Sequence record: PZ179882.1 | Direction: 5' to 3' (one strand) | Origin: a phage | DNA: 64,000 bases | In this document: in pieces, positions 4,232-61,254 of the stretch | Numbering within the stretch: the stretch's first letter is position 1 | Layout: every line of letters starts with the position of its first letter | Notes under the pieces: model-generated | What the model saw: only the letters and a program-made list of their open reading frames with translations | Told to the model about the DNA's origin: nothing | Database searches by the model: none | Program-made: the position numbers and the translations under genes

Positions 4232-4312
4232 TTTATTCTCCTTTGTTTGTGTAAGATAATACTATCACAAAGGAACTATACTGTAAACAACTTTGTGCAA
4301 TCTTTGGAAAAT

Positions 4313-4340
4313 AAAAAAGGACTCCCGAAGGAGTCCTTAA
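4313..4340 (-). terminator. intrinsic terminator (GGACTCC-TTCG-GGAGTCC hairpin + T6 on minus strand)
   Basis: Perfect 7-bp GC-rich stem with UUCG loop followed by U-run, directly after stop of 4342..4518 ORF; identical copy at 57271..57298. Confidence 0.65.
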
Positions 4341-6888: not shown

Positions 6889-7121
6889 AGTACGCCATAC
6901 ACCCTTTGTGCTTCAACTAATCCATCAAAATCCAGTTTAAGATGTGTTATTTGATCACCATCACCTGGATTCACAATTACTAATACTGAACGAGGAGTTT
7001 CGGTAATAACACGAACCGACGTTTCAGGAAATCGTTCAGAAACCTTATTTACTAATTCTTGAGCAAATAGTTTAACTTTTTCTTGGAATTCTTTAGTAGT
7101 AATTGGTTTTTCACTTAGCAT
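6885..7121 (-). CDS. hypothetical protein, 78 aa (cd.2 slot)
   Basis: Track ORF. Confidence 0.55.
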   Translation of the reverse strand: MLSEKPITTKEFQEKVKLFAQELVNKVSERFPETSVRVITETPRSVLVIVNPGDGDQITHLKLDFDGLVEAQRVYGVL

Positions 7122-7642
7122 GTTGATCCCAGCTCCTTACTTTCAACGTTTTTAACTAATTTGACAGAAACTAATTCGGCATCTTGGGTAATCATTACCG
7201 GGCCTTCTTCATACTCTTCAAGATATTCTAGAGCTTTCTTTTTAGCTTCTTCCTTCGTATCAGTTTGAGCATAGATATAGAACATACAACCAGTAATACC
7301 TACTACTTTCCACTTAATTTCTTTATCAGCTTTAATTTCAAATTTACTGACAGAATCATCTTTTTGAACTTCTTCGAAAAAAGAATATTCTAACATATAA
7401 GCAATTGAAAATAACGGACTAACTTTATAGGATTCGCCCATTACATCAACAGCTTTATACCAGCAGTCATCAATTTCACGTTTAATGCTAATAACATTTT
7501 TCGCAGGATCTATTTTTACTTTAAATGAATTTTCCCCAATAAACTGGGCAATTCGTTTATTAGCCCCGCAAGTTTCATTAAAAATATCTTTATATCCAGC
7601 TTTAAAGCGATAAACCTTATCTTCTTCAAACCATTCGCTCAT
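7115..7642 (-). CDS. hypothetical protein, 175 aa (cd.3 slot)
   Basis: Track ORF. Confidence 0.55.
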   Translation of the reverse strand: MSEWFEEDKVYRFKAGYKDIFNETCGANKRIAQFIGENSFKVKIDPAKNVISIKREIDDCWYKAVDVMGESYKVSPLFSIAYMLEYSFFEEVQKDDSVSKFEIKADKEIKWKVVGITGCMFYIYAQTDTKEEAKKKALEYLEEYEEGPVMITQDAELVSVKLVKNVESKELGSTC

Positions 7643-18573: not shown

Positions 18574-19366
<793 letters not shown>

Positions 19367-19609
19367 TCAAACAGACTTTTTCACAATTTTCCAATCAGCT
19401 TTAAACTGTTCAACGTCAGAATGGTAAATCCAGAATCCTGCGCTTTCTCCATCCTCATAAAGAGGGCATCCATCACATTCATCTTCCCATCCCATATCAC
19501 GTAAAAGATGTTCGGCTTTTTCAACGAGATCAGAATCTTTACCGATGATATTAAAATACCATTTACCTCTAACTTCTGAATCTTTAATGCTCTGGCGTTG
19601 TAATCTCAT
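19367..19609 (-). CDS. hypothetical protein, 80 aa
   Basis: AAGGAG SD 8 nt before ATG at 19609 (Met 20 of track ORF). Confidence 0.5.
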   Translation of the reverse strand: MRLQRQSIKDSEVRGKWYFNIIGKDSDLVEKAEHLLRDMGWEDECDGCPLYEDGESAGFWIYHSDVEQFKADWKIVKKSV

Positions 19610-19666
19610 TTTATTCTCCTTAGTTGATAAGGCTATAGTATCACTACCATAGCCCGTTGTAAACAA

Positions 19667-19969
19667 TTATTTTTGAATTTTATCGAGCCACTTACCAAGC
19701 TTAATCATTTCTTTAGTAGCCTTTTCCATACTTCTGAACTTAACCAATAGAGGATAGGTATCGACACCCATAACTAAACTGGTTACAAGACTGTGTTCAC
19801 CCACAAGCCATAACGAATACGTTTGAATATCGAGTCCGTAATTTCTGTCTTTATGGACCCGTACACCCATCACTTCAAATTTCTCACTAGCTTTTTCTAC
19901 CGCATCCAGGAAATCATCTTTAGTCATATTAGGCCTTAAAAGTTTTTCGCAAAAGTTCAATGATTTCAT
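19667..19969 (-). CDS. hypothetical protein, 100 aa
   Basis: Track ORF. Confidence 0.5.
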   Translation of the reverse strand: MKSLNFCEKLLRPNMTKDDFLDAVEKASEKFEVMGVRVHKDRNYGLDIQTYSLWLVGEHSLVTSLVMGVDTYPLLVKFRSMEKATKEMIKLGKWLDKIQK

Positions 19970-20315
19970 CTACATTGTTTTCGTCTACAATGCAGTGAAT
20001 TTTTGTTACGCCAGAAACCTTGTCTTCGACTTCATCTTCTTCAGAAGTCGGTTCTTTATACTCGCGGAAACAATAAAACTCTTCTTCACTAAGTTCAAAA
20101 TAATCATCACCTATGCCATCATCATTATAGATTTCGCCATTAGCACAAATGATTTCGGTTACATAATCAAAGCCATCTAAACTTGATATTGATTTAACTT
20201 CAAACCAACCGCCATTTTCTTGAATGATGCTGACCATATTAGCATTTGATGAACTAATATCAATGAAAGATTTAATACGGTGTGGATTTAACTCATATTT
20301 TTTGCCGATTTCCAT
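19929..20315 (-). CDS. hypothetical acidic protein, 128 aa
   Basis: Track ORF. Confidence 0.5.
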   Translation of the reverse strand: MEIGKKYELNPHRIKSFIDISSSNANMVSIIQENGGWFEVKSISSLDGFDYVTEIICANGEIYNDDGIGDDYFELSEEEFYCFREYKEPTSEEDEVEDKVSGVTKIHCIVDENNVDEIIELLRKTFKA

Positions 20316-20361
20316 TTTTGATTTTCCTCATTTTGATAGGGGCTTGACAGCCCCTTGATAA

Positions 20362-20589
20362 TTATTGTTCGATCAGTCCCATGTAAAATTCTGCGTCTTC
20401 AGCATCCATACCATCACAATATTCATTAGCCATAAAGCGGGTGAGGTCTTCAAGAGGACCTTCAATAACGATTTGAATGCTCCAAAACTTAGAATCTTGT
20501 ACGCTTGTGATACTAAGTTCAGGATAACGATTACGAATAATTTCTTCAATATATTCAAAATCAACGATGTCAATATCAACTTTAGCCAT
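20362..20589 (-). CDS. hypothetical acidic protein, 75 aa
   Basis: AAAGAGGAAA SD before ATG at 20589 ([16 protein letters not shown]…). Confidence 0.5.
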
Positions 20590-20632
20590 ATTATTTTCCT
20601 CTTTAATCATCAGCAGTATTGCCGATAGTTGT

Positions 20633-20662
20633 ATAGTACCATAGAAGAACAGAGATGTAAAC
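20633..20662 (-). promoter_or_regulatory. T4-type early promoter (-35 GTTTAC, 18-nt spacer, TGGTACTAT -10-like)
   Basis: Minus strand GTTTACatctctgttcttctaTGGTACTAT then conserved leader ACAACTATC; upstream of ORF starting 20589. Confidence 0.5.
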
Positions 20663-20683
20663 AGTTTTGTGAAAAATTTTTGA

Positions 20684-20712
20684 AATAAAAAAAGGGGACC
20701 TCTAGGGTCCCC
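20684..20712 (-). terminator. intrinsic terminator downstream of gene 32
   Basis: GGGGACC-loop-GGTCCCC hairpin followed by T8 on minus strand, 20 nt after gene 32 stop. Confidence 0.7.
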
Positions 20713-20734
20713 AATTAATTAGTAATATAATCTA

Positions 20735-21643
20735 TTAAAGGTCATTCAAAAGGTCATCCAGGTCCGTGTCATCAGCACTAGATGAACTGCCAGAGCTTGA
20801 GCTCATAAAATCATCTTCAGTTTTTGTTTTGAAGTCATCAACATTGAATGCATCCAAATCATCAGCAACTTTATCGGCTTTCTTAGCGGCAGTTGCTGCG
20901 GCACCACCCATAGCAGCAGTTCCCATAACTTGACTGAACTTAGTGCTCAGTTCTTCAAACGATTTGAATTTATCTTTAGAAGTCATTTCAGAAAGGTCAA
21001 CCATTTGTTCGAACAGTTCTTTCTGGAAAGATTCATCATCAATGTTTGGAATCGCAGATTGATTCAGGAATTTAGATTCGTCGTAGTTACTAAAACCAGA
21101 AACTTGTTTAACTTTCAGTACAAAGTTAGCACCTTCCCACGGACAAGTTACATCAACCGGAGTTTCACCCATTTCAACATCAACTGCAATCATTGCATTG
21201 ATTTTATCCCAGATTTTCTTACCGAAACGGTATTTAAATACTTTACCTTCATTTTCTGGAGCAGCTGGGTCTTTTACTACAAGAATGTTAGCCCAGTAAG
21301 AAGTTTTACGTTTAACAAGACCATACTCTTTATTGTCAGTGTTGTACAAATCATTTTTACTGATGTACTGACATACTGGACAAGAATCGTAATCACCGTA
21401 GGTAGATGAGCATGTTTCAATATACCATTTACCATTTTTCTTGAAACCGTGATTTACAAGAAGTGCGAATGGTGCTTGTTCATCATTTTTAGACGGAAGA
21501 AAACGAATTACTGCTTGACCGTTACCCGCATTATCGAGTTTCAGTTTCCACTCGCCTTTATCTTCAGAAGAAAAACCACCTTTATTTCCAGCCAGTTTAG
21601 CCATTTGTGCAGCGAGTTCAGCAGTAGATTTACGTTTAAACAT
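20735..21643 (-). CDS. 32: single-stranded DNA-binding protein gp32, 302 aa
   Basis: [19 protein letters not shown]…, zinc-binding Cys/His, acidic Ser/Asp C-tail; matches T4 gp32. Confidence 0.97.
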
Positions 21644-21717
21644 TTTTATTTCCTTTTTAATTTAATTAACAGTTGGTGCTATGACGATGTATGACCTCAT
21701 AGCTGGTCAGTGAGATA

Positions 21718-21741
21718 ATTATAATCTATTTATAATAAGCA
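21718..21741 (-). promoter_or_regulatory. gene 32 middle promoter (MotA box TGCTTA, 12 nt, TATAAT) overlapping late-promoter TATAAATA
   Basis: Minus strand …aatTGCTTAttataaatagatTATAATtat…; TATAAATA at 21734..21727. Confidence 0.5.
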
Positions 21742-21742
21742 A

Positions 21743-22396
21743 TTAATACTTGCATGATTTCACAGTTTCAATGAAAACACTTTTAGCTTTCTGTGAATCA
21801 ATATTTAAAATTTTTCTATAAGCTTTTAACTTTATAGAATAATTATTCCAGACTAAATTATCAGTCTGTTCATCATGTTTATCAATTATATTTAAAAACG
21901 AATCAAGCAAGATAAACGTCTCAAACGAAATTATATTCGATTGAAGTAGTTTAAAAATATAACTTGATTGAACTTTTGGATTATACTCAAAGATTTCTTT
22001 AAAAGCAGAAACTTCAACTTTTTTACTAAAATAATAAATGTTGCGAATATCTTCTTCAAACTTAAATTTAATTTGCTTTAAGCGTCCGATATATTCACGA
22101 TAAAACACAAGTGCATCAGCATCAGAGATGTCACCAATCCAAGCATCCTGGTTAGCAACAAGATTGCTTATAAAGATTAAAGCAAGTTCCTTTAATTTAT
22201 ATTTTTCTGATAACTTCTGGAAAAAATACTTATCCCTTCGCTTTTGATAAGCGGCATCAGACACCCGCATGCACCAATTATACTTAATTACATCATACTT
22301 TCCATTCATATGTTGTTTTATCATTAAGTATAATTTATAAACTGATTTACCATCAATGTATCTTTCACCACCAGCAGGCATGCGGAGTTTAATCAT
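21743..22396 (-). CDS. 59: helicase loader gp59, 217 aa
   Basis: MIKLRMPAGGERYIDGKSVYKLYLMIKQH… matches T4 gp59. Confidence 0.95.
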   Translation of the reverse strand: MIKLRMPAGGERYIDGKSVYKLYLMIKQHMNGKYDVIKYNWCMRVSDAAYQKRRDKYFFQKLSEKYKLKELALIFISNLVANQDAWIGDISDADALVFYREYIGRLKQIKFKFEEDIRNIYYFSKKVEVSAFKEIFEYNPKVQSSYIFKLLQSNIISFETFILLDSFLNIIDKHDEQTDNLVWNNYSIKLKAYRKILNIDSQKAKSVFIETVKSCKY

Positions 22397-22731
22397 AGTA
22401 GAAAATCTAATGTATTAGTTTTTTCGCAACGAACAACAGAAGGACGTAAAAGATTTTCGTCAATAGCTTCTGACTGAATTTTTTCAATTATACCAGAAGG
22501 AATAAATTTAGCAAATTGAGTTTCAGGAATAGAATTTTCTTCTAAGAATGCTGTTGTAGCTTCAAGATAACTCATTCCAAACTCTTCTACCATTTTTTCA
22601 ATAATAAATCCATTTTCTTGGCGGTCAAGAAGTTTTGCTATTTCATCCTTTTCTTTCTTAATTGAAAGTTCTTTTTCTGAAAGACCGGTCTCATCGACCG
22701 GACGAATATCATTTAGAGAAAACTGTGTCAT
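22393..22731 (-). CDS. 33: late transcription co-activator gp33, 112 aa
   Basis: MTQFSLNDIRPVDETGLSEKELS… ; start taken at Met 4 of track ORF. Confidence 0.85.
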   Translation of the reverse strand: MTQFSLNDIRPVDETGLSEKELSIKKEKDEIAKLLDRQENGFIIEKMVEEFGMSYLEATTAFLEENSIPETQFAKFIPSGIIEKIQSEAIDENLLRPSVVRCEKTNTLDFLL

Positions 22732-22978
22732 AAAGTTCAACTACCTCTTCAGTTTCAGCTTCAAACACATCACGGTTATCTTTATGATACAAAGCTAATA
22801 GACGATTAAACATCTTACCATCAACACCAAGTTCATCTTTGGCACGAATTCGAATGTCTTTAATCAATTCATTATAACCAGAAATTTTCAGTTTATGATC
22901 AGATGCTTCTTTGATAAATTTGGCCAAGTCTTCGCCATGAATAGCTTCGTCAAATTCAACCATTTCTTTTTTAGCCAT
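22709..22978 (-). CDS. dsbA: double-stranded DNA-binding protein DsbA, 89 aa
   Basis: 89-aa ORF between rnh and 33 as in T4. Confidence 0.85.
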   Translation of the reverse strand: MAKKEMVEFDEAIHGEDLAKFIKEASDHKLKISGYNELIKDIRIRAKDELGVDGKMFNRLLALYHKDNRDVFEAETEEVVELYDTVFSK

Positions 22979-22986
22979 TATTCACC

Positions 22987-23904
22987 TCAAAATTCATTAA
23001 TGCTATTAGTTAATTTAGAAAGACCCGCTTTTACAAAATATGAATAAATTTTGCCACGCGGTGGTAATTTATATGAATTATAGTAATTCACAATGTTTGA
23101 AGCAATATTATCAGGAATATAATCAAAGTCAATTAGAACTAAATTTTCTTTATATCGATTATATTCAGATTCAGTGAGAAGCACCTTAGCTTGCTCACGG
23201 TCATTAGCAATAGCTTCAACAATAGATGTTTTCATTGAAGGAGTTCGTTCACCTTCAACTCTGGTAAACCAAAAGTCAGATCGTACTTTAACTGAAGCAA
23301 CGTTATCCTTTTTGTCGCCTTTAAGGATTTTAGTCATGCAATCAATTTCAGCAGAACCGCTTTTAATTTTAACCCATTTCTTATGCATCGGTGACCATTG
23401 CTTAACATTTGGATACTTGTGAAGTTGAGTAAAGTCACCATCCGATGAAATGATTAAAATTTTATGTCCTTCTAAAGAGAACTTTTTAACAAGCACAGCA
23501 ATGTGGTCATCTGCTTCATACTTATCAATATCCATAACAATGTATGGCATATAAGCTTTCAATTCATCTATAACTTTATGACTGGATTCAAAATAACCTT
23601 CCCAGTCCCAAGTAGATTCTTCTCGTGCTTTTCCACGGTTTTTCTTATAATAATAAGCAAAATCACGACGCCAGTATCCGGATTTTGCGTTATCGATACA
23701 CAATACAATTTTAGTGTATCCAAGAGTTTTTGCTTTTTTGACATTAAACTTAATTGAGTTCAATATCAAATGACGAACCATTGATAAGTTAATTTTTTCT
23801 TTATCTGGAAAGTTTACTAAAGCAGTTGAAAGCGCAATTTGACTAAAGTCAATTAAGCAAATTCCTTCTTTGTAATCTTCATCCAGCATCATTTCTAAAT
23901 CCAT
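22987..23904 (-). CDS. rnh: RNase H / FEN-type 5'-3' exonuclease, 305 aa
   Basis: MDLEMMLDEDYKEGICLIDFSQIALS… matches T4 RNase H; start at Met 6 of track ORF. Confidence 0.93.
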   Translation of the reverse strand: MDLEMMLDEDYKEGICLIDFSQIALSTALVNFPDKEKINLSMVRHLILNSIKFNVKKAKTLGYTKIVLCIDNAKSGYWRRDFAYYYKKNRGKAREESTWDWEGYFESSHKVIDELKAYMPYIVMDIDKYEADDHIAVLVKKFSLEGHKILIISSDGDFTQLHKYPNVKQWSPMHKKWVKIKSGSAEIDCMTKILKGDKKDNVASVKVRSDFWFTRVEGERTPSMKTSIVEAIANDREQAKVLLTESEYNRYKENLVLIDFDYIPDNIASNIVNYYNSYKLPPRGKIYSYFVKAGLSKLTNSINEF

Positions 23905-23966
23905 ATGAACCTCGTTCAATTAGTGAGATTTCTATTATATACTATCCAAATCTTAAAGTAAACAAG

Positions 23967-23974
23967 TATAAATA
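23967..23974 (+). promoter_or_regulatory. late promoter TATAAATA upstream of gene 34
   Basis: Exact TATAAATA 35 nt upstream of gene 34 ATG. Confidence 0.55.
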
Positions 23975-24008
23975 CTTATTATTGAAAACACAATAGGAGC
24001 CCGGGAGA

Positions 24009-27000
24009 ATGGCCGAGATTAAAAGAAAGTTCAGAGCAGAAGATGGTCTGGACGCAGGTGGCGATAAAATAATCAACGTAGCTTTAGCTGATCGTACCGT
24101 AGGAACTGACGGTGTCAACGTTGATTACTTAATTCAAGAAAACACAGTTCAACAATATGATCCAACTCGTGGATATTTAAAAGATTTTGTAATCATTTAT
24201 AATAATCGTTTTTGGGCAGCAACGGATAATATTCCAAAACCTGCTGGAAGTTTTAATAGAATTCGTTGGAAAGCATTACGTACTGATGCCGTATATACAA
24301 CCGTATCATCTGGACCATATCAATTAAAATCCGGAGAAGCAATTTCAGTAGATACATCAGTTGGTAATGACATTGAGTTTAATTTACCACCTTCTCCGCT
24401 TGATGGAGAGACCGTAATAATTCAAGATATTGGTGGAAAACCTGGTATAAATCAGGTTAAAATAAATTCTTCAAATCAGAGTATTGTTAATTTTAGAGGT
24501 GAACAGGTACGTTCAGTTCTAATGACTCATCCAAAGTCACAAATGATATTCATTTTTAATAATCGTTTGTGGCAAATGTATGTTGCTGATTATAGCAGAG
24601 AAGCTGCGATTGTTACTCCATCGACTGCATATCAAGCACAATCTAATGATTTTATTGTGCGTAGATTTACTTCCGCTGCGCCGATTAATATTAAACTTCC
24701 GAGATTTGCTAATCATGGCGATATTATTAATTTCGTTGATTTAGATAAATTAAATCCACTTTATCATACAATTGTCACGACATATGATGAAACAACTTCA
24801 GTACAAGAAGTTGGAACTCATTCTATTGAAGGCCGTACATCGATTGACGGTTTCTTGATGTTTGATGATAATGAAAAATTATGGAGATTGTTTGACGGGG
24901 ATAGTAAAGCACGTTTACGCATTATAACAACTAATTCTAATATTCGTCCAAATGAAGAAGTTATGGTATTTGGTGCGAATAACGGAACAGCCCAAACAAT
25001 TGAACTTCAACTTCCAACCGATATTTCCATTGGTGATACTGTTAAAATTTCCATGAATTACATGAGAAAAGGACAAACAGTTAAAATCAAAGCTGCCGGT
25101 GAAGATAAAATTGCTTCTTCAGTTCAATTGCTGCAATTCCCAAAACGTTCAGAATATCCACCTGAAGCTGAATGGGTGACTGTTCAAGAATTAGTTTTTA
25201 ACGGCGAAACCAATTATGTTCCAGTTTTACAACTTGCTTATATAGAAGATTCTGACGGAAAATACTGGGTTGTACAACAAAACGTTCCAACGGTTGAAAG
25301 AGTCGATTCTTTAAATAATTCTACTAGAGCAAGATTAGGCGTAATTGCTTTAGCTACACAAGCTCAAGCTAACGTCGATTTAGAAAATTCTCCACAAAAA
25401 GAATTAGCAATTACACCAGAAACATTAGCTAACCGTACTGCTACAGAAACTCGTAGAGGTATCGCAAGAATAGCAACTACTGCTCAAGTGAATCAGAACA
25501 CCACATTCTCTTTTGCTGATGACCTTATCATCACTCCTAAAAAGCTGAATGAAAGAACTGCTACAGAAACTCGTAGAGGTGTCGCTGAAATTGCTACGCA
25601 GCAAGAAACTAATACAGGTACTGATGATACTACAATCATCACTCCTAAAAAGCTTCAAGCTCGTCAAGGTTCTGAATCATTATCTGGTATTGTAACCTTT
25701 GTATCTACTGCAGGAGCTACTCCAGCTTCTAGTCGTGAATTAAATGGTACAAATGTTTATAATAAAAACACTAATAATTTAGTTGTTTCGCCTAAAGCTT
25801 TGGATCAGTATAAAGCTACTCCAACGCAACAAGGTGCAGTAATTTTAGCAGTTGAAAGTGAAGTAATTGCTGGACAAAGCCAAGAAGGATGGGCAAATGC
25901 GGTTGTAACGCCAGAAACGTTACATAAAAAGACATCAACTGATGCAAGAATTGGTTTAATTGAAATTGCTACACAAAGTGAAGTTAATACAGGAACTGAT
26001 TATACTCGTGCAGTCACTCCGAAAACTTTAAATGACCGTAGAGCAACTGAAAGTTTAAGTGGTATAGCTGAAATTGCTACGCAAGTTGAATTCGACGCAG
26101 GCGTCGACGATACTCGTATCTCTACACCATTAAAAATTAAAACCAGATTTAATAGTACTGATCGTACTTCTGTTGTTGCTCTATCTGGATTAGTTGAATC
26201 AGGAACTCTCTGGGACCATTATACCCTTAATATTCTTGAAGCAAATGAGACACAGCGTGGTACACTTCGTGTAGCTACACAAGTTGAAGCTGCTGCAGGA
26301 ACATTGGATAATGTTCTAATAACTCCTAAAAAGCTTTTAGGTACTAAATCTACTGAAGCACAGGAAGGCGTTATTAAAGTTGCAACTCGGTCTGAAACTG
26401 TAGCTGGAACGTCAGCAAATACTGCTGTATCCCCAAAAAATTTAAAATGGATTGTGCAGAGTGAACCAACTTGGGCAGCTACTACCCTGGTAAGAGGTTT
26501 TGTTAAAACTTCATCTGGTTCAATTACATTCGTTGGTAATGATACAGTTGGTTCTACGCAGGACTTAGAACTATATGAGAAAAATAACTATGCAGTATCA
26601 CCATATGAATTAAACCGCGTATTAGCAAATTATTTGCCGTTAAAAGCAAAAGCTGTAGATAGTAATTTATTAGATGGTTTAGATTCACTCCAGTTCATTC
26701 GTAGGGATATTGCGCAGACGGTTAATGGTTCACTAACCTTAACACAGCAAACGAATCTGAGTGCCCCTCTTGTATCATCTAGTACTGCTACATTTGGTGG
26801 ATCAGTTTCAGCAAATAGTACATTAACTATTTCTAATACTGGAACGGCAACTCGTCTGATTTTTGAGAAAGGACCTCAAACTGGAACAAACCCGGCTCAA
26901 ACGATGACAGTCAGAGTGTGGGGAAATCAATTTAGTGGGGAGTCAGACACAACACGTTCTACTGTATTTGAAGTTAGTGATGAAACTTCTAGTCATTTTT

Positions 27001-27878
27001 ATTCTCAGCGTAATAAAGCTGGTAATATAACATTTAATATCAACGGTACAGTAACACCGATAAATGTGAATGCTTCAGGAACATTGAATGCGAATGGCGT
27101 TGCAACATTTGGTAATTCAGTCACTGCAACTGGTGAAATTATTTCTCGAAGCGCAAATGCTTTCCGTGCTATTAATGGAAATTACGGTTTCATTATTCGT
27201 AATGACGGGTCAGTAACGAATTTTATGCTTACTGCATCAGGCAATCAAACTGGTGGATTTAATGGATTGCGTCCATTGTCCATTAATAATCAATCTGGGC
27301 AGGTCACAATTGGTGAAAGCTTGATCATTGCTAAAGGTGCTACTATAAATTCAGGTGGTTTAACTGTTAACTCGAGAATTCGTTCTCAAGGTGTTAAAAC
27401 ATCTGATTTATATACCCGTGCGCCGACATCTGATACTGTAGGATTCTGGTCAATCGATATTAATGATTCAGCCACTTATAACCAGTTCCCGGGTTATTTT
27501 AAAATGGTTGAAAAAACTAATGAAGTTACTGGACTTCCATACTTAGAACGTGGCGAAGAAGTTAAATCTCCTGGTACATTGACTCAGTTTGGTAACACAC
27601 TTGATTCACTTTACCAAGATTGGATTACTTATCCAACGACTCCAGAAGCACGTACCACTCGCTGGACACGTACATGGCAAAAAACTAAAAACTCTTGGTC
27701 AAGTTTTGTTCAGGTATTTGACGGAGGTAACCCTCCTCAACCTTCAGATATAGGAGCGATCCCATCTGATAATGGAATAATAGGTAATCTTACTATTCGT
27801 GATTTCTTACGAATTGGTAATGTTCGCATTATTCCTGACCCAGTGAATAAAACTGTTAAATTTGAATGGGTTGAATAA
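24009..27878 (+). CDS. 34: long tail fiber proximal subunit gp34, 1289 aa
   Basis: 1289-aa plus-strand ORF; internal repeats (…TETRRGxAxIATxxExNxGTDxTxxITPKKL…); matches T4 gp34 length and sequence. Confidence 0.95.
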   Translation: MAEIKRKFRAEDGLDAGGDKIINVALADRTVGTDGVNVDYLIQENTVQQYDPTRGYLKDFVIIYNNRFWAATDNIPKPAGSFNRIRWKALRTDAVYTTVSSGPYQLKSGEAISVDTSVGNDIEFNLPPSPLDGETVIIQDIGGKPGINQVKINSSNQSIVNFRGEQVRSVLMTHPKSQMIFIFNNRLWQMYVADYSREAAIVTPSTAYQAQSNDFIVRRFTSAAPINIKLPRFANHGDIINFVDLDKLNPLYHTIVTTYDETTSVQEVGTHSIEGRTSIDGFLMFDDNEKLWRLFDGDSKARLRIITTNSNIRPNEEVMVFGANNGTAQTIELQLPTDISIGDTVKISMNYMRKGQTVKIKAAGEDKIASSVQLLQFPKRSEYPPEAEWVTVQELVFNGETNYVPVLQLAYIEDSDGKYWVVQQNVPTVERVDSLNNSTRARLGVIALATQAQANVDLENSPQKELAITPETLANRTATETRRGIARIATTAQVNQNTTFSFADDLIITPKKLNERTATETRRGVAEIATQQETNTGTDDTTIITPKKLQARQGSESLSGIVTFVSTAGATPASSRELNGTNVYNKNTNNLVVSPKALDQYKATPTQQGAVILAVESEVIAGQSQEGWANAVVTPETLHKKTSTDARIGLIEIATQSEVNTGTDYTRAVTPKTLNDRRATESLSGIAEIATQVEFDAGVDDTRISTPLKIKTRFNSTDRTSVVALSGLVESGTLWDHYTLNILEANETQRGTLRVATQVEAAAGTLDNVLITPKKLLGTKSTEAQEGVIKVATRSETVAGTSANTAVSPKNLKWIVQSEPTWAATTLVRGFVKTSSGSITFVGNDTVGSTQDLELYEKNNYAVSPYELNRVLANYLPLKAKAVDSNLLDGLDSLQFIRRDIAQTVNGSLTLTQQTNLSAPLVSSSTATFGGSVSANSTLTISNTGTATRLIFEKGPQTGTNPAQTMTVRVWGNQFSGESDTTRSTVFEVSDETSSHFYSQRNKAGNITFNINGTVTPINVNASGTLNANGVATFGNSVTATGEIISRSANAFRAINGNYGFIIRNDGSVTNFMLTASGNQTGGFNGLRPLSINNQSGQVTIGESLIIAKGATINSGGLTVNSRIRSQGVKTSDLYTRAPTSDTVGFWSIDINDSATYNQFPGYFKMVEKTNEVTGLPYLERGEEVKSPGTLTQFGNTLDSLYQDWITYPTTPEARTTRWTRTWQKTKNSWSSFVQVFDGGNPPQPSDIGAIPSDNGIIGNLTIRDFLRIGNVRIIPDPVNKTVKFEWVE

Positions 27879-27886
27879 GAGGTATT

Positions 27887-29002: not shown

Positions 29003-29007
29003 ACTGA

Positions 29008-29030
29008 GGGAGCCTTCGGGTTCCCTTTTT
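29008..29030 (+). terminator. intrinsic terminator after gene 35
   Basis: GGGAGCC-TTCG-GGTTCCC hairpin followed by TTTTT on plus strand. Confidence 0.6.
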
Positions 29031-29033
29031 CTT

Positions 29034-29041
29034 TATAAATA
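29034..29041 (+). promoter_or_regulatory. late promoter TATAAATA upstream of gene 36
   Basis: Exact TATAAATA 24 nt upstream of gene 36 ATG. Confidence 0.55.
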
Positions 29042-29064
29042 ATATTAAAATAAAGGGGCATATA

Positions 29065-29715: not shown

Positions 29716-29723
29716 GAGGACTT

Positions 29724-32795: not shown

Positions 32796-32801
32796 CAACA
32801 A

Positions 32802-36394: not shown

Positions 36395-37030
36395 TCACAG
36401 TTCAGATGCTACGGTGATTACAGCTTCAATGTTTTCTGCTGAACGTTTAATGTCAAGATACACATTACCGTTTTTAGCGATTTTACATGACATTCCGATA
36501 TCAGTAAATTTCTGAATATGATGTTCCATCATTTTGTATCCAAAAATTCGCATATTTCCATTATTGTTAATTTCAAAATTACGAATTCCGTGAGTGCGTT
36601 TTTCTAAAATAGCAAGATAGTTACTGCGGTAAGTTTCAACCTTTTTGAGAACAAATCCATTTTCATCTAAAAGTTTTAGCATGTGGTCTTTATCTTCTTC
36701 CATATCGGAAGTAATCTCACGAGCTTTACGAGTTGCTCGTTTTTTCAGCAGTTCAGGAGCGTTTTCCTGTGCGTATAAAGTTGCTGCATTTGAAATAATA
36801 TCCTGAGCTTCACCAGTAATGATTAATCCATCACCAGATTTCTCCACCAGGCCTTTTTTAATCAATACCCCAATATTACTATTAACTACTGCATTACCTA
36901 AATCTGGATGCACCTCACGAACTTCTGCAGCTGTAATGAAATCTTTCTTAGCAATGGTAATTAAAATCGCAGCAGTTTTTTCATTCAGAACATCGTTAGA
37001 AGCTTTGATGATGTAAGTTACTTTAGACAT
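36395..37030 (-). CDS. motA: middle-transcription activator MotA, 211 aa
   Basis: MSKVTYIIKASNDVLNEKTAAILITIAKKDF… matches T4 MotA. Confidence 0.95.
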   Translation of the reverse strand: MSKVTYIIKASNDVLNEKTAAILITIAKKDFITAAEVREVHPDLGNAVVNSNIGVLIKKGLVEKSGDGLIITGEAQDIISNAATLYAQENAPELLKKRATRKAREITSDMEEDKDHMLKLLDENGFVLKKVETYRSNYLAILEKRTHGIRNFEINNNGNMRIFGYKMMEHHIQKFTDIGMSCKIAKNGNVYLDIKRSAENIEAVITVASEL

Positions 37031-37135
37031 TTTAATCTCCGTTTCAGTTCATTTATTTGATAGGTCTATAGTATCATGTTTAAAGCAGAAGTAAACACTT
37101 TTTTGCACTCTTTTTCAAGAGCTCTAATAAAGTAC

Positions 37136-37363
37136 TTACTTAATGTTCAGATTACGAACTTCGATTTCGTCTTCATGGGCAAAATCAAACTGTTTGAATT
37201 CTGTGTCACCTTTAAATTTAAAAATCATTGTGAAGAAAGTCAGAACACCAGGTTTTTCTTCACGAACTCCACAGATATCATATTCAATACCATCTACAAC
37301 CAGTTTGTTAGCAGTCAGAGCATTTTTAGCTTTAACGATTTCGTTTTCGATTTTAAATTTCAT
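37136..37363 (-). CDS. hypothetical protein, 75 aa (motA.1 slot)
   Basis: Track ORF with GGAGAT SD; preceded by early promoter cassette. Confidence 0.55.
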   Translation of the reverse strand: MKFKIENEIVKAKNALTANKLVVDGIEYDICGVREEKPGVLTFFTMIFKFKGDTEFKQFDFAHEDEIEVRNLNIK

Positions 37364-37412
37364 TTTTTGTATCTCCGGGTTGTTTGTTTCAGTTCATTTA
37401 TTTGATAGTTGT

Positions 37413-37442
37413 ATAGTACCACAGTATGCTTTGGTTGTAAAC
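37413..37442 (-). promoter_or_regulatory. T4-type early promoter (-35 GTTTAC, 18 nt, TGGTACTAT)
   Basis: Minus strand GTTTACaaccaaagcatactgTGGTACTAT + conserved leader ACAACTATC. Confidence 0.5.
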
Positions 37443-37463
37443 CGTTTTGTGAAAAAATTTTTG

Positions 37464-37493
37464 AAATAAAAAAGGGAGAGCCGAGGCTCTCCC
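37464..37493 (-). terminator. intrinsic terminator
   Basis: GGGAGAG-loop-CTCTCCC hairpin followed by T6 on minus strand. Confidence 0.65.
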
Positions 37494-37498
37494 TAAAA

Positions 37499-37648
37499 TT
37501 ACTGCATGACTGTGATAACTGTCATGATAACACGTTGAATTCCGAACGCAAGAAGACCTCCTGCTACGGCAGGAACAACACCTAAACCCGCCAGTAAAAT
37601 TCCACCAGATACTAATGCAGCGCTTGTGATACCAATGAATGGACTCAT
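37499..37648 (-). CDS. small Gly/Ala-rich hydrophobic peptide, 49 aa
   Basis: MSPFIGITSAALVSGGILLAGLGVVPAVAGGLLAFG…; ATG overlaps gene 52 stop (ATGA). Confidence 0.45.
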   Translation of the reverse strand: MSPFIGITSAALVSGGILLAGLGVVPAVAGGLLAFGIQRVIMTVITVMQ

Positions 37649-40202: not shown

Positions 40203-40420
40203 CATTTTACACCATTCCAAATTGTTTCAACCACAGATTTTAAACCATTTTGATGAATATCAATTCCGACTACTGTCATCAAATAGATTCCAACTACAAC
40301 TGAACCTAAGGCAAAAATCAGCATGAAAATGAATAAAGCCGGAAAAATATTATCGAAAAACCACTCAATAAATGTAAAAGCACTGCGTTTACGCTTCATA
40401 TTTTCCTCACATAAATCCAA
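40202..40420 (-). CDS. small membrane protein, 72 aa
   Basis: Track ORF; two hydrophobic segments. Confidence 0.55.
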   Translation of the reverse strand: MDLCEENMKRKRSAFTFIEWFFDNIFPALFIFMLIFALGSVVVGIYLMTVVGIDIHQNGLKSVVETIWNGVK

Positions 40421-40520
40421 AGTAAACGTTTAATACATCAATCATTAAAACGATTGGGAATATACTCAAAACTATTAGTATTATAACTACATTCCATATA
40501 GCTTTAACAATCTTTTTCAT
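40407..40520 (-). CDS. tiny membrane peptide, 37 aa
   Basis: MKKIVKAIWNVVIILIVLSIFPIVLMIDVL…; lies just downstream of early promoter cassette; track ORF N-terminal extension judged spurious. Confidence 0.45.
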   Translation of the reverse strand: MKKIVKAIWNVVIILIVLSIFPIVLMIDVLNVYFGFM

Positions 40521-40534
40521 TTTCTGTTCTTCCG

Positions 40535-40578
40535 TAGTTGATAGTTGTATAGTACCACGGAAGAACAGTCTTGTAAAC
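40535..40578 (-). promoter_or_regulatory. T4-type early promoter with conserved leader (PeSL-like cassette copy)
   Basis: Minus strand GTTTACaagactgttcttccgTGGTACTATACAACTATCAACTAC. Confidence 0.5.
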
Positions 40579-40585
40579 AACTTTT

Positions 40586-40684
40586 TTAAAAATATTCGTA
40601 ATAAATGTGAATACCAACTACTACCGCTGAAACCTGTGCAACCCACCACGCACAAGCAATAAGTACAGAATTCAAAATTTTCAT
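40586..40684 (-). CDS. tiny membrane peptide, 32 aa
   Basis: GAGG SD then MKILNSVLIACAWWVAQVSAVVVGIHIYYEYF. Confidence 0.4.
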   Translation of the reverse strand: MKILNSVLIACAWWVAQVSAVVVGIHIYYEYF

Positions 40685-40767
40685 AATAACCTCATCACAA
40701 AAGTAAATGTTAAACAAATTACTGGAATACTAATTAACCAAACAAAACACCACCATAATGAACTCAT
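40681..40767 (-). CDS. tiny membrane peptide, 28 aa
   Basis: MSSLWWCFVWLISIPVICLTFTFVMRLL; ATGA overlaps on both sides. Confidence 0.4.
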   Translation of the reverse strand: MSSLWWCFVWLISIPVICLTFTFVMRLL

Positions 40768-41027
40768 AGTTCAATCTCAATGATTTCAAGATTATTTTCT
40801 TTAATAGCTTTCTTTAAATCATCGTAAATAAGAACTTCCCAAGAATTGTTTAAATCACCATTCAACAAACGCTCTTGTTGCAATTTATCAGTAAGATATG
40901 GTTGGTCTGATTCATATTTAGACAATCCCAATGAAATAAATGATGTTGCATCGTCAATTTCAGAATATTGTACATGAACAAATTCACCTGTGATTTTATG
41001 TTTAACATAAAAGAATTTAAATTTCAT
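40764..41027 (-). CDS. hypothetical protein, 87 aa
   Basis: Track ORF preceded by early promoter cassette. Confidence 0.55.
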   Translation of the reverse strand: MKFKFFYVKHKITGEFVHVQYSEIDDATSFISLGLSKYESDQPYLTDKLQQERLLNGDLNNSWEVLIYDDLKKAIKENNLEIIEIEL

Positions 41028-41039
41028 TTTTGTTCCTCT

Positions 41040-41084
41040 GTAGTTGATAGTTGTATAGTACCACGGTCCTTGTAGTATGTAAAC
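41040..41084 (-). promoter_or_regulatory. T4-type early promoter with conserved leader (PeSL-like cassette copy)
   Basis: Minus strand GTTTACatactacaaggaccgTGGTACTATACAACTATCAACTAC then SD and ATG at 41027. Confidence 0.5.
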
Positions 41085-41100
41085 TAGTTTATGAAATTTT

Positions 41101-41658
41101 TTAGATGGAAAGATACCATCCGTTGTAGTTGCTTTTTCGCACTACCTTACGAAGGTCTTCTCTATCACCAATGAACTTCGGAGTGTACTGGATGACACCT
41201 GGATGAATTTCTTTAGTGTTGAATATAATTATACAGTCCGCGACTTGATGATTCAGAATGGGCCCTAGATTTATTCCAGAACCATATGGATACTCTCCGC
41301 TGCATCCTGTTGTTACCGAAATCCAACGTGAGTCAGTTTGATGGGTTTTGACTTCTACGCGAAGTCCGCAGTATCTTGGGTGCGCCAATACATCCCATGC
41401 ATATGTATACGGGTCATTAACATCCTCTTGGCCTTTGTTAACATACCCGCTCAGCCAATCTGCTACAAAAAACTCTGCATACACAGCGATACGGCATCTT
41501 TCGATGACTTCTGCTTTATCCTGATTAGGATTTTGTTTTAAAGAGTATCTTGCTGTATCAGCAATTTTGACCTTCATTTCACTAGTCAAATCATTGTTCG
41601 ATAGGGTAAATGTCGGAATCTGAAATAGTCTCTGTAAACCTGGATTCGTTTTCTGCAT
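41101..41658 (-). CDS. denB: endonuclease IV, 185 aa
   Basis: 185-aa ORF directly after rIIB/denB.1 as in T4. Confidence 0.8.
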   Translation of the reverse strand: MQKTNPGLQRLFQIPTFTLSNNDLTSEMKVKIADTARYSLKQNPNQDKAEVIERCRIAVYAEFFVADWLSGYVNKGQEDVNDPYTYAWDVLAHPRYCGLRVEVKTHQTDSRWISVTTGCSGEYPYGSGINLGPILNHQVADCIIIFNTKEIHPGVIQYTPKFIGDREDLRKVVRKSNYNGWYLSI

Positions 41659-47692: not shown

Positions 47693-48118
47693 TTATTCCT
47701 TAAAGTGAGCTTTCAACATCTGATACAAGGACCATGCTTGTTCATTATTTTCAATAGTAACTTTCATTACCGGGAATTCTGTGAAATCTTCTATTTGTTC
47801 TTGCTCTTTCTCTTCCTGCTCTTGCTCTTCAGCTGCCTGGTATGGATTTTCAACTTCATCAAAGAATTCAGCTTCGCTAGTAGAAAGCCAAATAAAATCT
47901 TCATCCAAAATATCTTTACCGGAGGATAATGCCAATCTTCCAGTAGATGTCACAATTTTAGTAGGACGACCAAGATAGTCAATATCTATAACTTTAAAAG
48001 GTTCCATACCTAAACGTCGTGCATAAATTCCGTTTTCAGTATGATATTTAATAAATTTTTCTTGAGCTTGTTTATTTTTAAATTGATACCATTTATTAAC
48101 TTCAAATTTAATAGCCAT
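47693..48118 (-). CDS. goF: GoF-like (comC-alpha) protein, 141 aa
   Basis: 141-aa ORF in the goF slot; acidic [12 protein letters not shown] stretch. Confidence 0.55.
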
Positions 48119-48333
48119 TAATAAATTTCCTTCCAGTAAGTTGTGCCGTCTTCAGTAATTTCACGAAATACACCGTAAATTGGCTGTTTATCACCGACTT
48201 TCTCATACACATAAACAGAAGTCAAGTGAGTAAACTTGCTAGTATGTTCCTTTTGAACTACTACCAAATTTGGATCAAATAATACATCTTCAAATTCATC
48301 ATTAGTGCAATTCTGAACAATTTTACGTTTCAT
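48118..48333 (-). CDS. cef: Cef-like protein, 71 aa
   Basis: 71-aa ORF in the cef slot. Confidence 0.5.
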
Positions 48334-48425
48334 TACAATTTCCTCATTAATTGAACATTGGAGCGATGCGTTTCAGAAGAGTATCAGCACCTTTAACGAA
48401 TTATCCATTTTATTCTCCAAGTTGT

Positions 48426-48464
48426 TTTCTGTATCAGTAGTTGATATTGATATAGTACCATAAT
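48426..48464. repeat. perfect 11-bp inverted repeat (CAGTAGTTGAT / ATCAACTACTG) with 17-nt loop containing -10-like TATAGTACCA
   Basis: Read directly in intergenic region upstream of the cef-like gene. Confidence 0.6.
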
Positions 48465-48504
48465 CAACTACTGATGTATATAGTTTTATGAAAAATTTTA
48501 AACT

Positions 48505-49002
48505 TTATGCACAGCGAGCTTTGCTATAGTGTTTAATCCAACTTTCAGGAATGACTTTGTATGTTCCTAAAAATACCGCGTTGTACAACTTAACGCCATC
48601 TTCTACCCACTGATCGGTAATGTATGCGCACATAGCACGAGTACGGTGTTTTTGAACAACCCCTTCCTCATCTTCAGTAAATTCGAATTCATAAGGAGCA
48701 ATGAACTTAATAGCTTGACCGAGTTTCCACTTAAAGTCTACACCTACATGCGAAGTATCAATCGTTTCAATTCCTTTAGCAGGAACAGCTTTCAAAAACG
48801 CAGGCTCAAGAAATTTCCATCGAACATAACCAAACTGAGGTTTAGACTTTCCATCTTTAGGAATGATACGCACTTTTACTTCAGAATCTTCATCTTTAAC
48901 GCCGTGTTTAAGCTGAATGCTTACAATTTCGACCAATTTTCCTGCTGCTTTAGAACGGGATTTATCAGATACACGAGCAATTTCACCAATATTAATAATC
49001 AT
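48505..49002 (-). CDS. motB: MotB-like protein, 165 aa
   Basis: Size/position match T4 MotB; C-terminal motif shared with next gene. Confidence 0.55.
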   Translation of the reverse strand: MIINIGEIARVSDKSRSKAAGKLVEIVSIQLKHGVKDEDSEVKVRIIPKDGKSKPQFGYVRWKFLEPAFLKAVPAKGIETIDTSHVGVDFKWKLGQAIKFIAPYEFEFTEDEEGVVQKHRTRAMCAYITDQWVEDGVKLYNAVFLGTYKVIPESWIKHYSKARCA

Positions 49003-57204: not shown

Positions 57205-57270
57205 AGTGCTCTCCTCTATAAGATAATTCTATTATACCATACTCATTGTGGAAAGTAAACCGGTAAAATG

Positions 57271-57298
57271 AAAAAAGGACTCCCGAAGGAGTCCTTTA
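57271..57298 (-). terminator. intrinsic terminator after soc (GGACTCC-TTCG-GGAGTCC + T6)
   Basis: Identical 26-nt sequence to the terminator at 4313..4340. Confidence 0.65.
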
Positions 57299-57302
57299 AT
57301 TA

Positions 57303-57539
57303 TTAACCATCTATTGCTGTAGGTGTGAACATTGCAGCATTCTTAGTTTTCCAATCAGCTGCATCAGAAACTACAGTAGAATATGCTGCCTTTTCTGACG
57401 GAAAGATTTGATAATGAGAATCTGCGATACGATGCTCGTTAGAATAAATTTCAAACGGAACAGAAACTTCCATACCTTTAACTTCTTTGCCTTCACCCGC
57501 TGGATGAGTAAAGGTCTTGATATTAACGAAACCACCCAT
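57303..57539 (-). CDS. soc: small outer capsid protein Soc homolog, 78 aa
   Basis: …VNIKTF…FPSEKAAYSTV… shared with T4 Soc; otherwise diverged. Confidence 0.8.
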   Translation of the reverse strand: MGGFVNIKTFTHPAGEGKEVKGMEVSVPFEIYSNEHRIADSHYQIFPSEKAAYSTVVSDAADWKTKNAAMFTPTAIDG

Positions 57540-60651: not shown

Positions 60652-60906
60652 CTATTTTATTTCCTCAAGTTCGTTAATCAATAAAAGTTCTCTGACGCTA
60701 AAAACAAAGAAAAATGTGTTCCCATCAACCAGAGCATGACCGCTAATAGAACACCCTCTGCGGAATTTAGAAACTTCACAATCTAGAACTGTAAAGGGTT
60801 TTAATCCTATGACTTTAGCTGTGCGTCTATTCAGTTCACAACCACTTGCGAATTTTTCCAAATCTTCTTCTGATTTAAACTGATATTCTCTATTAACTAG
60901 CATCAT
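60652..60906 (-). CDS. hypothetical protein, 84 aa
   Basis: Track ORF. Confidence 0.5.
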   Translation of the reverse strand: MMLVNREYQFKSEEDLEKFASGCELNRRTAKVIGLKPFTVLDCEVSKFRRGCSISGHALVDGNTFFFVFSVRELLLINELEEIK

Positions 60907-60969
60907 TTTCTTTTCTCCGCGATTAGCTGATAGAATTACTATAACACAACTCTATCAGCTTGTAAACTA

Positions 60970-61254
60970 CTATTTTACTAGCATCAATAACTGTTTCTCT
61001 AACTTGACGATTTTACGAAAGTATCTTTTGCATTGGCGAATCTGTCGCTTCGTAGGGCGCACAGCAAACTTAATAAATTCCACTCGACCAAATGGAGGAC
61101 TTTCTTCTGCTGGAATATCTAACACCAATTCCCACGTATCTGCAACAAGTGCTTTGAATTGAGTATTTTTCCTGACATTATACGGAGTAGGTTTAAATAA
61201 AACAATATGCATATTATCCTCGGCAATCCACTTCACATACTTTCTTGTCATCAA
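60970..61254 (-). CDS. hypothetical basic protein, up to 94 aa (start possibly Met 15 at 61212)
   Basis: Track ORF; 5' end overlaps dmd unless internal start used. Confidence 0.45.
   Translation of the reverse strand: MMTRKYVKWIAEDNMHIVLFKPTPYNVRKNTQFKALVADTWELVLDIPAEESPPFGRVEFIKFAVRPTKRQIRQCKRYFRKIVKLEKQLLMLVK

Follow-up and report, generated by a model that had tools for sequence, protein, structure and literature searches.

Between gene 32, which encodes the ssDNA-binding protein and ends at position 20735, and the small gene frd.3, the phage DNA examined here (record PZ179882.1; the whole stretch of 64,000 nucleotides is called the window) contains a minus-strand block of sequence that recurs at several other loci, which raises the question of what this block is and why it is repeated. 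The earlier note on this DNA had read it as a cassette consisting of a terminator, an early promoter, and a leader, had placed each copy directly upstream of a small minus-strand ORF of unknown function, and had likened the copies to the promoter-early stem-loops (PeSLs) that act as hotspots of modular gene shuffling in T4-type genomes. From the analysis described below, the repeated element of 70–100 nt is very probably a strong early promoter of T4-type phages that also serves as a recombination joint for small genes. The window belongs to a T4-like phage (Tequatrovirus) and shares 98–99.8% identity with many T4-like phages; the region around the block is 98–99% identical to many Tequatrovirus genomes, with Escherichia phage a51 as the top match. 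The ORF at 21743..22396 is gene 59, and segG is absent from the window. The phages phiE142 (121 kb) and SHP1 (63 kb), considered as carriers of the cassette outside the T4 group, were rejected because both belong to the Straboviridae.

The core of the repeat is the 18-mer TGGTACTATACAACTATC, which occurs exactly at four places (20641..20624, 37421..37404, 40557..40540, and 41063..41046) and with three mismatches at two more (37076..37059 and 48460..48443). All six matches are on the minus strand, and only 0.03 were expected (100 shuffles). The exact matches at 40557..40540 and 41063..41046 agree with the earlier claim that the leader recurs at around 40.5k and 41.0k. The approximately 70 nt said to be shared in the same order by 20712..20621 and 37493..37402 were also borne out: 74 of 95 aligned columns were identical, whereas shuffled sequences gave 52 on average and 59 at most. 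In these two long copies, the identical stretch begins at the T-run and extends through TTTCAAAAATTTTT(T)CACAAAAC to GTTTACA; the 15-nt spacers that follow are unrelated, and identity returns in the 18-mer. Both copies also have the hairpin that had been taken as part of the repeat, but the stems are different sequences of the same kind, that is, analogous rather than homologous, and the common sequence starts only at the T-run. Similarly, the GTTTAC element and its spacer are present, but the spacer that had been given as 18 nt is the canonical 17 bp when the −35 hexamer is read as TTTACA. Some of the positions reported earlier are shifted by 1 nt, although the sequences there are as described. 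The placement of each copy before a small ORF of unknown function needs amendment at two sites: the gene driven by the copy at 37076..37059 is motA, whose function is known, and the copy at 48.4k, with the leader ATCAACTACTGATACAGAAAACAACTTGGAG, is followed directly only by an 11-codon remnant ORF (48408..48373) and then by cef. In other phages, the 48.4k-type leader stands before a full gene starting with MDNYGEL.

Table 1. Genes, terminators, and early promoter cassettes of the window. Genes were named by comparison with the T4 record; start sites (+1) are predictions.
Feature	Position	Strand	Elements and remarks
frd.3	20589..20362	minus	named by comparison with the T4 record
T4 motA.1 homolog	37648..37499	minus	named by comparison with the T4 record
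motA	37030..36395	minus	named by comparison with the T4 record
denB	41658..41101	minus	named by comparison with the T4 record
ndd.4 homolog	40520..40407	minus	named by comparison with the T4 record
motB	49002..48505	minus	named by comparison with the T4 record
cef	48333..48118	minus	named by comparison with the T4 record
Gene 32 intrinsic terminator	20694..20712	minus	hairpin GGGGACC-CTAGA-GGTCCCC; T-run 20693..20687; −14.3 kcal/mol
frd.3 early promoter cassette	20590..20693	minus	T-run/A-T tract, UP-like; GTTTAC 20662..20657; TG 20641..20640; TACTAT 20638..20633; predicted +1 A 20626; SD AGAGGA
Intrinsic terminator after the motA.1 homolog	37473..37494	minus	−18.6 kcal/mol, z = −4.8; T-run follows
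Early promoter cassette before the 75-aa ORF (37363..37136)	37364..37472	minus	GTTTAC 37442..37437; −10 37418..37413; predicted +1 37406; SD GGAG; ORF lacking in T4
Second, diverged cassette driving motA	37031..37135	minus	GTTTAC 37096..37091; 16-bp spacer; TACTAT 37073..37068; predicted +1 37061; SD GGAG
Early promoter cassette between denB and the 87-aa ORF (41027..40764)	41028..41100	minus	GTTTAC 41084..41079; −10 41060..41055; predicted +1 41048
Early promoter cassette before the ndd.4 homolog	40521..40600	minus	GTTTAC 40578..40573; −10 40554..40549; predicted +1 40542
Degenerate cassette between motB and cef	48409..48500	minus	−35 ATATAC 48481..48476; −10 TACTAT 48457..48452
Terminator directly upstream of early promoter (−10 at 57236)	57262..57310	minus	−17.7 kcal/mol, z = −4.4
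Terminator directly upstream of early promoter (−10 at 4264)	4290..4340	minus	−15.0 kcal/mol

The GC hairpins described at the two long copies both fold (Table 1), and a hairpin followed by a U-run was found at 20712..20687 and 37494..37467. These are the two best minus-strand terminator-like sites within 19000–38999; the gene 32 terminator is identical in T4, where it also lies downstream of gene 32, and the terminator after the motA.1 homolog is conserved in T4. No intrinsic terminator was found at the copies at 41.0k, 40.5k, 37.1k, and 48.4k, and the terminator is thus an optional part of the cassette. The composite described earlier therefore holds for the promoter and the leader, but an adjacent terminator accompanies only two of the six copies. 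When stem-loops of the PeSL type are considered more broadly, they comprise the terminators at 20.7k, 37.5k, 57.3k, and 4.3k, a small loop at 37.1k, where the motA cassette carries an upstream stem-loop (AGAGCTCTTGAAAAAGAG...), and inverted repeats bracketing the −10 box at 40.5k and 48.4k. The copy at 41.0k showed neither a terminator nor a convincing stem-loop. Searches with the Rfam covariance models found no family at the gathering score anywhere in the window.

A generic sigma-70 scan did not discriminate promoters in this DNA (66 sites versus 69 expected), and a T4-specific pattern was needed. With this pattern, 22 promoters in the window were judged convincing; every one of them is read from the minus strand and precedes a minus-strand ORF. 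They are built alike: a tract rich in A and T is followed by GTTTAC(A/T), a spacer of 17 bp, TGn, TA...T, and finally a leader that closes with a Shine–Dalgarno (SD) sequence and ATG. Their consensus is ..aaaaa.attt.A.AaA.ttGTTTACa-N-taTG.TAttATA.aa.TaTcaa, in which the weak TaTcaa lies within the first transcribed bases. An intrinsic terminator stands directly upstream of four of the 22 (20.7k, 37.5k, 57.3k, and 4.3k); the terminator and promoter at 57.3k have the same composite architecture with a different sequence. The mean pairwise identity of the 22 promoters over 89 nt was 0.45 ± 0.06, and the six copies of the repeat formed the most similar pairs, with identities of 0.55–0.67 over the same length. 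Judging from these values, the copies are the tightest subfamily among the early promoters of the window and not a separate element. GTTTAC occupies the −35 position in all of them except the 48.4k copy (ATATAC), the spacers are 17 bp (16 bp for the −10 box at 37073), TG is present in all six, and the −10 box is TACTAT. The UP-like tract upstream of the copies is TTTCAAAAATTTTTCACAAAAC or a close variant, and an A-rich consensus extends throughout the family. In the leaders before the 75-aa ORF (ORF75), motA, and the remnant on the cef side, GGAG is followed by an A-rich sequence. The six subfamily copies and the 22 family members in 64 kb are distributed among frd.x, ndd.x, motB–cef, and similar small ORFs.

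The identification as early promoters is supported by T4 itself, in which orthologous cassettes occur before frd.3, motA, ndd.6, ndd.4, and cef. The T4 frd.3 cassette, located after gene 32, is identical to that of the window except for a replaced 15-nt spacer. The T4 motA cassette, located after motA.1, matches the window at 37493..37404, with identity through ...ACAACTATCAA, and drives motA directly. The T4 cassette between motB and cef has the same ATATAC as its −35 box and the same 13-bp inverted repeat. The two T4 cassettes in the ndd region, one between denB and ndd.6 (the ortholog of the 41.0k copy) and one before ndd.4 (the ortholog of the 40.5k copy), are annotated in X75802 as promoters with −35 and −10 signals, and the promoter feature in that record ends 7 nt past the −10 box; the start sites in Table 1 were predicted from this spacing. 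The RNA of frd.3 has been reported among the most abundant NAD-capped RNAs of T4 (bioRxiv 10.1101/2024.04.04.588121), and it is therefore a primary transcript starting with +1A. The T4 early promoters have been described as 'uber' UP/−35/TGn/−10 promoters with extra consensus positions, which outcompete host promoters (PMC2988021), and the RegB nuclease cleaves GGAG followed by an A-rich sequence in the SD sites of early mRNAs (PMC3014915). All the elements of the T4 early promoter class were found in the copies, as were all the features of that class and of PeSLs that can be tested on sequence.

The clearest case of a gene gained or lost between cassettes is the slot before motA. In T4, a single cassette stands directly before motA, whereas in the window, the same cassette is followed by ORF75, a second cassette, and motA. 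The second cassette repeats the −10 box and leader of the first (TACTATAGACCTATCAAATAAATGAACTGAAAC); its leader ATCAAATAAATGAACTGAAAC repeats that of the cassette 345 bp upstream, with an identity of 0.87 to the leader of the cassette with its −10 box at 37418. The arrangement with ORF75 was found in 128 other records, and in phage Manna, a different 71-aa ORF occupies the same cassette-flanked slot. Hundreds of T4-type records showed 68% query coverage, and the sampled ones were about 342 bp shorter, the cassette period being 345 bp. In PhiZZ23, there is a tandem duplication ending in the UP tract. Homologs of ORF75 also occur in unrelated neighborhoods in a Gelderlandvirus and a Jiaodavirus. 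Comparing relatives had been proposed as a check on whether ORFs flanked by cassettes come and go as units, and the slot proved to be empty in T4 and the T4-type records, filled with ORF75 in the window and the 128 records, and filled with another ORF in Manna.

Other comparisons delimit this picture. The 50,697 phage records examined contained no simple recombinant of the cassettes on either side of ORF75, and a search with the hypothetical recombinant returned only two-piece matches containing ORF75 or matches of the T4 type. The T4 motA allele has a different leader and therefore did not arise from the window allele by simple deletion. No loss of the 506 bp between the cassettes at 41.0k and 40.5k was found in 40 sampled records, among which coverage was never <84% in near-full matches, and denB-based retrieval from IMG/VR yielded eight loci. 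The loss of the 87-aa ORF after denB in T4 was an internal deletion that left an 8-codon remnant and not a cassette-to-cassette event. On a synteny map of the window against T4, five of the 18 indel or replacement events touch a cassette, and seven of the 36 indel boundaries lie in cassettes, compared with 1.5 expected at random (P ~0.003). There are two further clean cases: a promoter-plus-ORF unit is inserted just upstream of the sp promoter, and in the cd.3–cd.2 insertion, an ORF joins precisely at the ATG that follows the leader of Pe133295, as this promoter is named in T4. The remaining events involve introns, homing-endonuclease genes, dam, and tail-fiber genes. Because indel boundaries are expected to be intergenic anyway and most intergenic DNA of T4 carries promoters, the breakpoint enrichment by itself does not prove that the cassettes recombine; stronger arguments come from the repeated flanks and the mosaic structure of the cassettes.

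This mosaic structure was observed among T4-like contigs of IMG/VR, in which an exact copy of the 18-mer was found upstream of 12 or more different genes. The spacer allele aagcataaagcttta is that of frd.3 in T4 and recurs elsewhere upstream of two further genes, and the spacer atccctgttcttcYa stands before frd.3 in the window and before three other genes. The leader aactgatacggatttggagaataaaATG is common to at least six different genes, up to the ATG. One of the IMG/VR contigs has a 37.4k cassette that is devoid of T-run, UP tract, and −35 box. Furthermore, two spacer alleles (S2 and S3) and two leader alleles (La and Lc) occur in all four possible combinations, and crossover is therefore placed within the invariant TGGTACTATACAACTATC core. 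Together with the three alleles at the motA slot and the enrichment of breakpoints in cassettes, this mosaic agrees with the modular shuffling that had been proposed for the repeat, and these comparisons support a role of the cassettes in shuffling small genes.

The copies could instead have become alike by independent convergence under selection for maximal promoter strength, with no exchange between loci and no role in shuffling. In line with such convergence, the consensus of the 22 promoters extends past the classical elements and weakly into the first transcribed bases, and 'additional regions of consensus' have been noted in the T4 literature (PMC2988021). However, the identity also spans segments with no known polymerase contact, namely the 15-nt spacers shared by unrelated loci and the leader shared up to the ATG by at least six genes, and convergence accounts neither for the four combinations of spacer and leader alleles nor for an ORF enclosed by direct repeats of the leader, at a slot that relatives leave empty or fill differently. 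Convergence is largely refuted by the mosaic pattern, and we regard it as improbable. A second alternative is that the cassettes are the ends or targets of a dedicated mobile element, whose specific recombinase or nuclease recognizes the invariant core or the stem-loop. The invariant 18-mer coincides with the inferred crossover region, and Arbiol et al. speculated on a protein that recognizes the stem-loop of PeSLs and reported mini-circles (PMC2839356). Nevertheless, no recombinase gene accompanies the cassettes, the inserted units are single small ORFs, the junctions vary in position (at the ATG, inside the leader, or upstream of the −35 box), the stems differ from copy to copy, and the homing-endonuclease events of the comparison with T4 are located elsewhere; a dedicated element is thus very improbable.

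There is next to no chance that the repeat is conserved as the coding sequence of a small protein: a TTG-initiated 34-aa ORF at 20714..20610 is annotated in phage a51 as hypothetical protein a51_75 (OQ067376), but it covers the terminator hairpin and the promoter, the T-run varies in length among close relatives and so shifts the frame, and no frame is kept in the other copies of the cassette, on which grounds this reading was rejected. Equally negligible is the possibility that these are MotA-dependent middle promoters, despite the 25 MotA-box-like sites in the window versus 12 expected and the presence of TCTGCTTTA in the spacer of the motA cassette: no cassette contains any of the listed MotA-box matches, the copies have GTTTAC at −35 instead of the box (a/t)(a/t)TGCTT(t/c)A that is centered at −30 in middle promoters (PMC2988021), and the TGCTTTA in the spacer at 37.07k is ~7 nt too near the −10 box.

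As a strong early promoter that doubles as a recombination joint, the cassette has well-documented counterparts, and its principle was published decades ago for T4 early promoters and in 2010 and 2014 for PeSLs. The interpretation in the earlier note was therefore right, and the phenomenon was already known, with only local detail added here. Accounts of the T4 early promoters (Pe) are reportedly given by Miller et al. in 2003 and by Wilkens and Rueger in 1996. The window copies are orthologous to these promoters, which are used immediately after infection (Hinton 2010, PMC2988021), and do not differ from them in kind; the differences are the spacer allele before frd.3 and the extra promoter–ORF unit before motA in the window. 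PeSLs were described in T4 and PST by Comeau, Arbiol and Krisch (2014), with the consensus TTTACW-N17-TAYWAT and the ndd region as an example (PMC4122927). The window shares with them the phage group, the consensus, the AT-rich tract upstream, a stem-loop immediately preceding the promoter, an SD sequence and start codon at the 3' end, adjoining small ORFs that are variable, and the same ndd region. There is no essential difference from the T4 and PST elements; the window adds ORF75 before motA and an intact 87-aa ORF after denB, and what goes beyond the published account is that its copies form one tight subfamily of the promoter family. The PeSLs of RB49 and phi1 were defined by Arbiol et al. 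(2010, PMC2839356), and their stem-loops can precede the −35 and −10 boxes, separate them, or overlap them (PMC2839356). They likewise combine a strong sigma-70-type promoter with a stem-loop and are dispersed in hyperplastic regions with flanking ORFs that vary among close relatives, and the repeats bracketing the −10 box in the window match the subclass in which the stem-loop overlaps that box. The window differs from RB49, in which the boxes are near-perfect TTGACA and TATAAT and the stems consist of G-runs and C-runs. Mini-circles and terminator activity were shown experimentally for RB49 and phi1.

Lambdoid morons are a more distant parallel. A moron is a gene with its own promoter and terminator, whose insertion leaves the neighboring genes undisturbed, and morons are thought to be inserted by illegitimate recombination, without a shared conserved linker. 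In the window, by contrast, the regulatory cassette itself would provide the homology. Morons have been discussed together with PeSLs (PMC2839356).

Some cassettes have a further structural feature, an inverted repeat around the −10 box, which occurs in roughly one third of the early promoters. Six of the 22 promoters contain a perfect repeat (8 nt or more) whose 5' arm is part of the spacer and whose 3' arm is part of the leader, whereas 0.32 were expected, with a maximum of 3 in 200 shuffles, and T4 has the same repeats. In the ndd.4 cassette, a 12-bp inverted repeat (CTGTTCTTCCGT / ACGGAAGAACAG) encloses the −10 box and the leader, its 3' arm lies over the SD sequence, and its fold has an energy of −19.4 kcal/mol (z = −5.2). 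The related copy that had been placed in a hairpin loop at 48.4k was found there: its −10 box is in the loop of a perfect 13-bp inverted repeat (48475..48463 / 48445..48433; −20.2 kcal/mol, z = −5.3). Transcripts from a cassette's own promoter begin downstream of the 5' arm, and such a hairpin can therefore form only in RNA that reads through from upstream. We consider it possible, albeit doubtful, that these repeats insulate the cassettes at the RNA level, the read-through RNA folding so as to hide the ribosome site, that of ndd.4 for instance, or form a barrier. If so, the ORF of a cassette would be translated only from its own promoter, and the promoter–ORF unit would be autonomous wherever it landed. 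At one position of the ndd.4 stem, the window has the pair T-A, T4 and two further contigs have T.G, and other relatives have C-G; this series hints at selection at the RNA level, with approximately nine sequences and one informative pair only.

A similar arrangement is known from the T4 genes e, soc, 49, and I-TevI: in their read-through RNA, the ribosome site is masked by a hairpin, whereas a promoter within the hairpin yields a translatable RNA. Some cassettes of the window resemble these genes in having the 5' arm upstream of the start and the 3' arm over the SD sequence. In addition to ndd.4 (40.5k), the promoter with its −10 box at 4264 has a perfect 8-bp repeat of this kind, and that with its −10 box at 11002 has an imperfect one, whose perfect core of 6 bp can be extended only by allowing a bulge. 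The promoter inside the hairpin is of the late or middle class in the T4 genes and early in the window, and the parallel is no more than a resemblance.

These observations can be combined into a scheme of how a cassette would work, with the activities of the promoters, the terminators, and RegB taken from the literature. Where present, the hairpin and T-run would terminate the upstream transcript (that of gene 32 or motA.1), and the A/T tracts that start in the T-run would serve as a UP-like element. GTTTAC(A), the 17-bp spacer, TGn, and TACTAT would together constitute an exceptionally good sigma-70 promoter for the unmodified host RNA polymerase right after infection, with transcription most likely starting at the A seven nt past the −10 box. 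The short leader would end in an SD sequence, often GGAG followed by an A-rich sequence, which is a known target of the T4 RegB nuclease, and the small downstream gene would receive a burst of expression that is quickly shut off. The cassette would also be a homology patch for the phage recombination system. Because its 40–100 nt are nearly identical at many loci, the small genes between cassettes could be inserted, lost, replaced, or moved as ready-to-express units, and segments of the cassettes themselves would be exchanged between loci. We infer that this exchange would proceed by general homologous recombination on patches of 20–100 nt, and the hairpins may insulate the units.

Cassettes of this kind would explain how phages of the T4 type can switch on dozens of small accessory genes only seconds after infecting a cell. 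These genes, many of which are likely to act in host takeover or anti-defense, could be swapped between phages without disturbing their neighbors, which is relevant to the reading of phage pan-genomes and to phage engineering.

The slot between motA.1 and motA, in which the window carries ORF75 (a 75-aa ORF), has at least four alleles, which are listed with the other features in the table below. In addition, a natural deletion was found in the IMG/VR contig IMGVR_UViG_2974787500_000001 (L017), where, in the cassette orthologous to that preceding ORF75, the terminator stem is fused directly to the promoter spacer, with the junction ggctctcc|aaagcatactgTGGTACTAT. The deletion takes out the -35 together with the UP tract and the T-run, so that in this phage ORF75 would lack both a promoter and a terminator upstream.

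Positions of the features in the window and alleles of the motA.1-motA slot
Feature	Position	Strand	Remark
motA.1-motA slot, window	37136..37363	minus	75-aa ORF
motA.1-motA slot, T4			empty
motA.1-motA slot, phage Manna (L033)			71-aa ORF, unrelated to the 75-aa ORF of the window
motA.1-motA slot, PhiZZ23 (L034)			end of motA.1 and terminator duplicated in tandem (128 bp)
Cassette before ORF75	37493..37404		orthologous to the L017 cassette
motA promoter spacer	37076..37096	minus	contains TCTGCTTTA
87-aa ORF after denB	40764..41027	minus	intact
Remnant MDNSLKVLILF	48373..48408	minus	11 codons
a51_75	20610..20714	minus	3211..3315 in L001
Promoters with repeat bracketing the -10 (first base of -10)	61431, 60943, 48457, 40554, 4264, 3873 (and 7678)	minus	perfect repeat
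Promoter listed with the T4 136312/123069 pair	-10 at 11002
Allele site 3' of the ndd.4 -10	40548..40540
Insertion upstream of sp promoter	60659..60989		promoter plus ORF
Insertion at Pe133295	7120..7640		ORF
Divergent tail-fibre genes	~29.2-33.6 kb

Relative to T4, two further insertions were identified in the window: one is a promoter-plus-ORF unit immediately upstream of the sp promoter, and the other places an ORF exactly at the ATG following the leader of promoter Pe133295 (T4 name), with cd.2 having a new SD. The whole-window comparison also showed that T4's segG, nrdB intron with I-TevIII, mobE with nrdB.1, gene 60/39 split with mobA, and dam are absent from the window, and that the tail-fibre genes are divergent.

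The 87-aa ORF after denB is reduced in T4 (167000-167040, L004) to an eight-codon in-frame remnant, MKIAEIEL, which has no annotation in the T4 record; its stop codon and the start codon of ndd.6 overlap as ATGA. Between motB and cef, the cef-side promoter is followed by the remnant MDNSLKVLILF, which T4 shares. In other T4-like phages (L009 and L022), a full-length gene that begins MDNYGEL has a leader and first 10-11 nt matching those of the remnant. The remnant appears to be a cassette-borne gene that has decayed or been truncated. In phage a51, a 34-aa hypothetical protein, a51_75, is annotated across the frd.3 promoter and the terminator of gene 32; this annotation almost certainly reflects a false gene prediction.

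Within the promoters themselves, the -10 is flanked in six of the 22 early promoters of the window by the arms of a perfect 8-13-nt inverted repeat (expected, 0.32; maximum in 200 shuffles, 3), with the 5' arm within the spacer and the 3' arm within the leader. The same repeats are present in T4. In the ndd.4 promoter, the SD is covered by the 3' arm; among relatives, a single position of the stem reads T-A, T.G, or C-G. The MotA-box-like sequence in the motA promoter spacer, also found in phage Manna, lies approximately 7 nt too near the -10 for a MotA box, and could be either a chance occurrence or a site of MotA autoregulation.

The subfamily recognised in the earlier note is not the sole duplicated one, because T4 has another near-identical pair of early promoter cassettes (GTTTACAagtccctcgtgttgtgtTATAGTagtcttact...catgagga) at distant loci (136312 and 123069, L149). 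Furthermore, two alleles, ACAAC and TACCC, were distinguished immediately 3' of the -10 when the ndd.4 promoter of the window was compared with T4 and L141-L145. Each occurs at several loci (ndd.4, the Manna motA slot, and T4 146119), a further sign of patchy exchange among cassettes.
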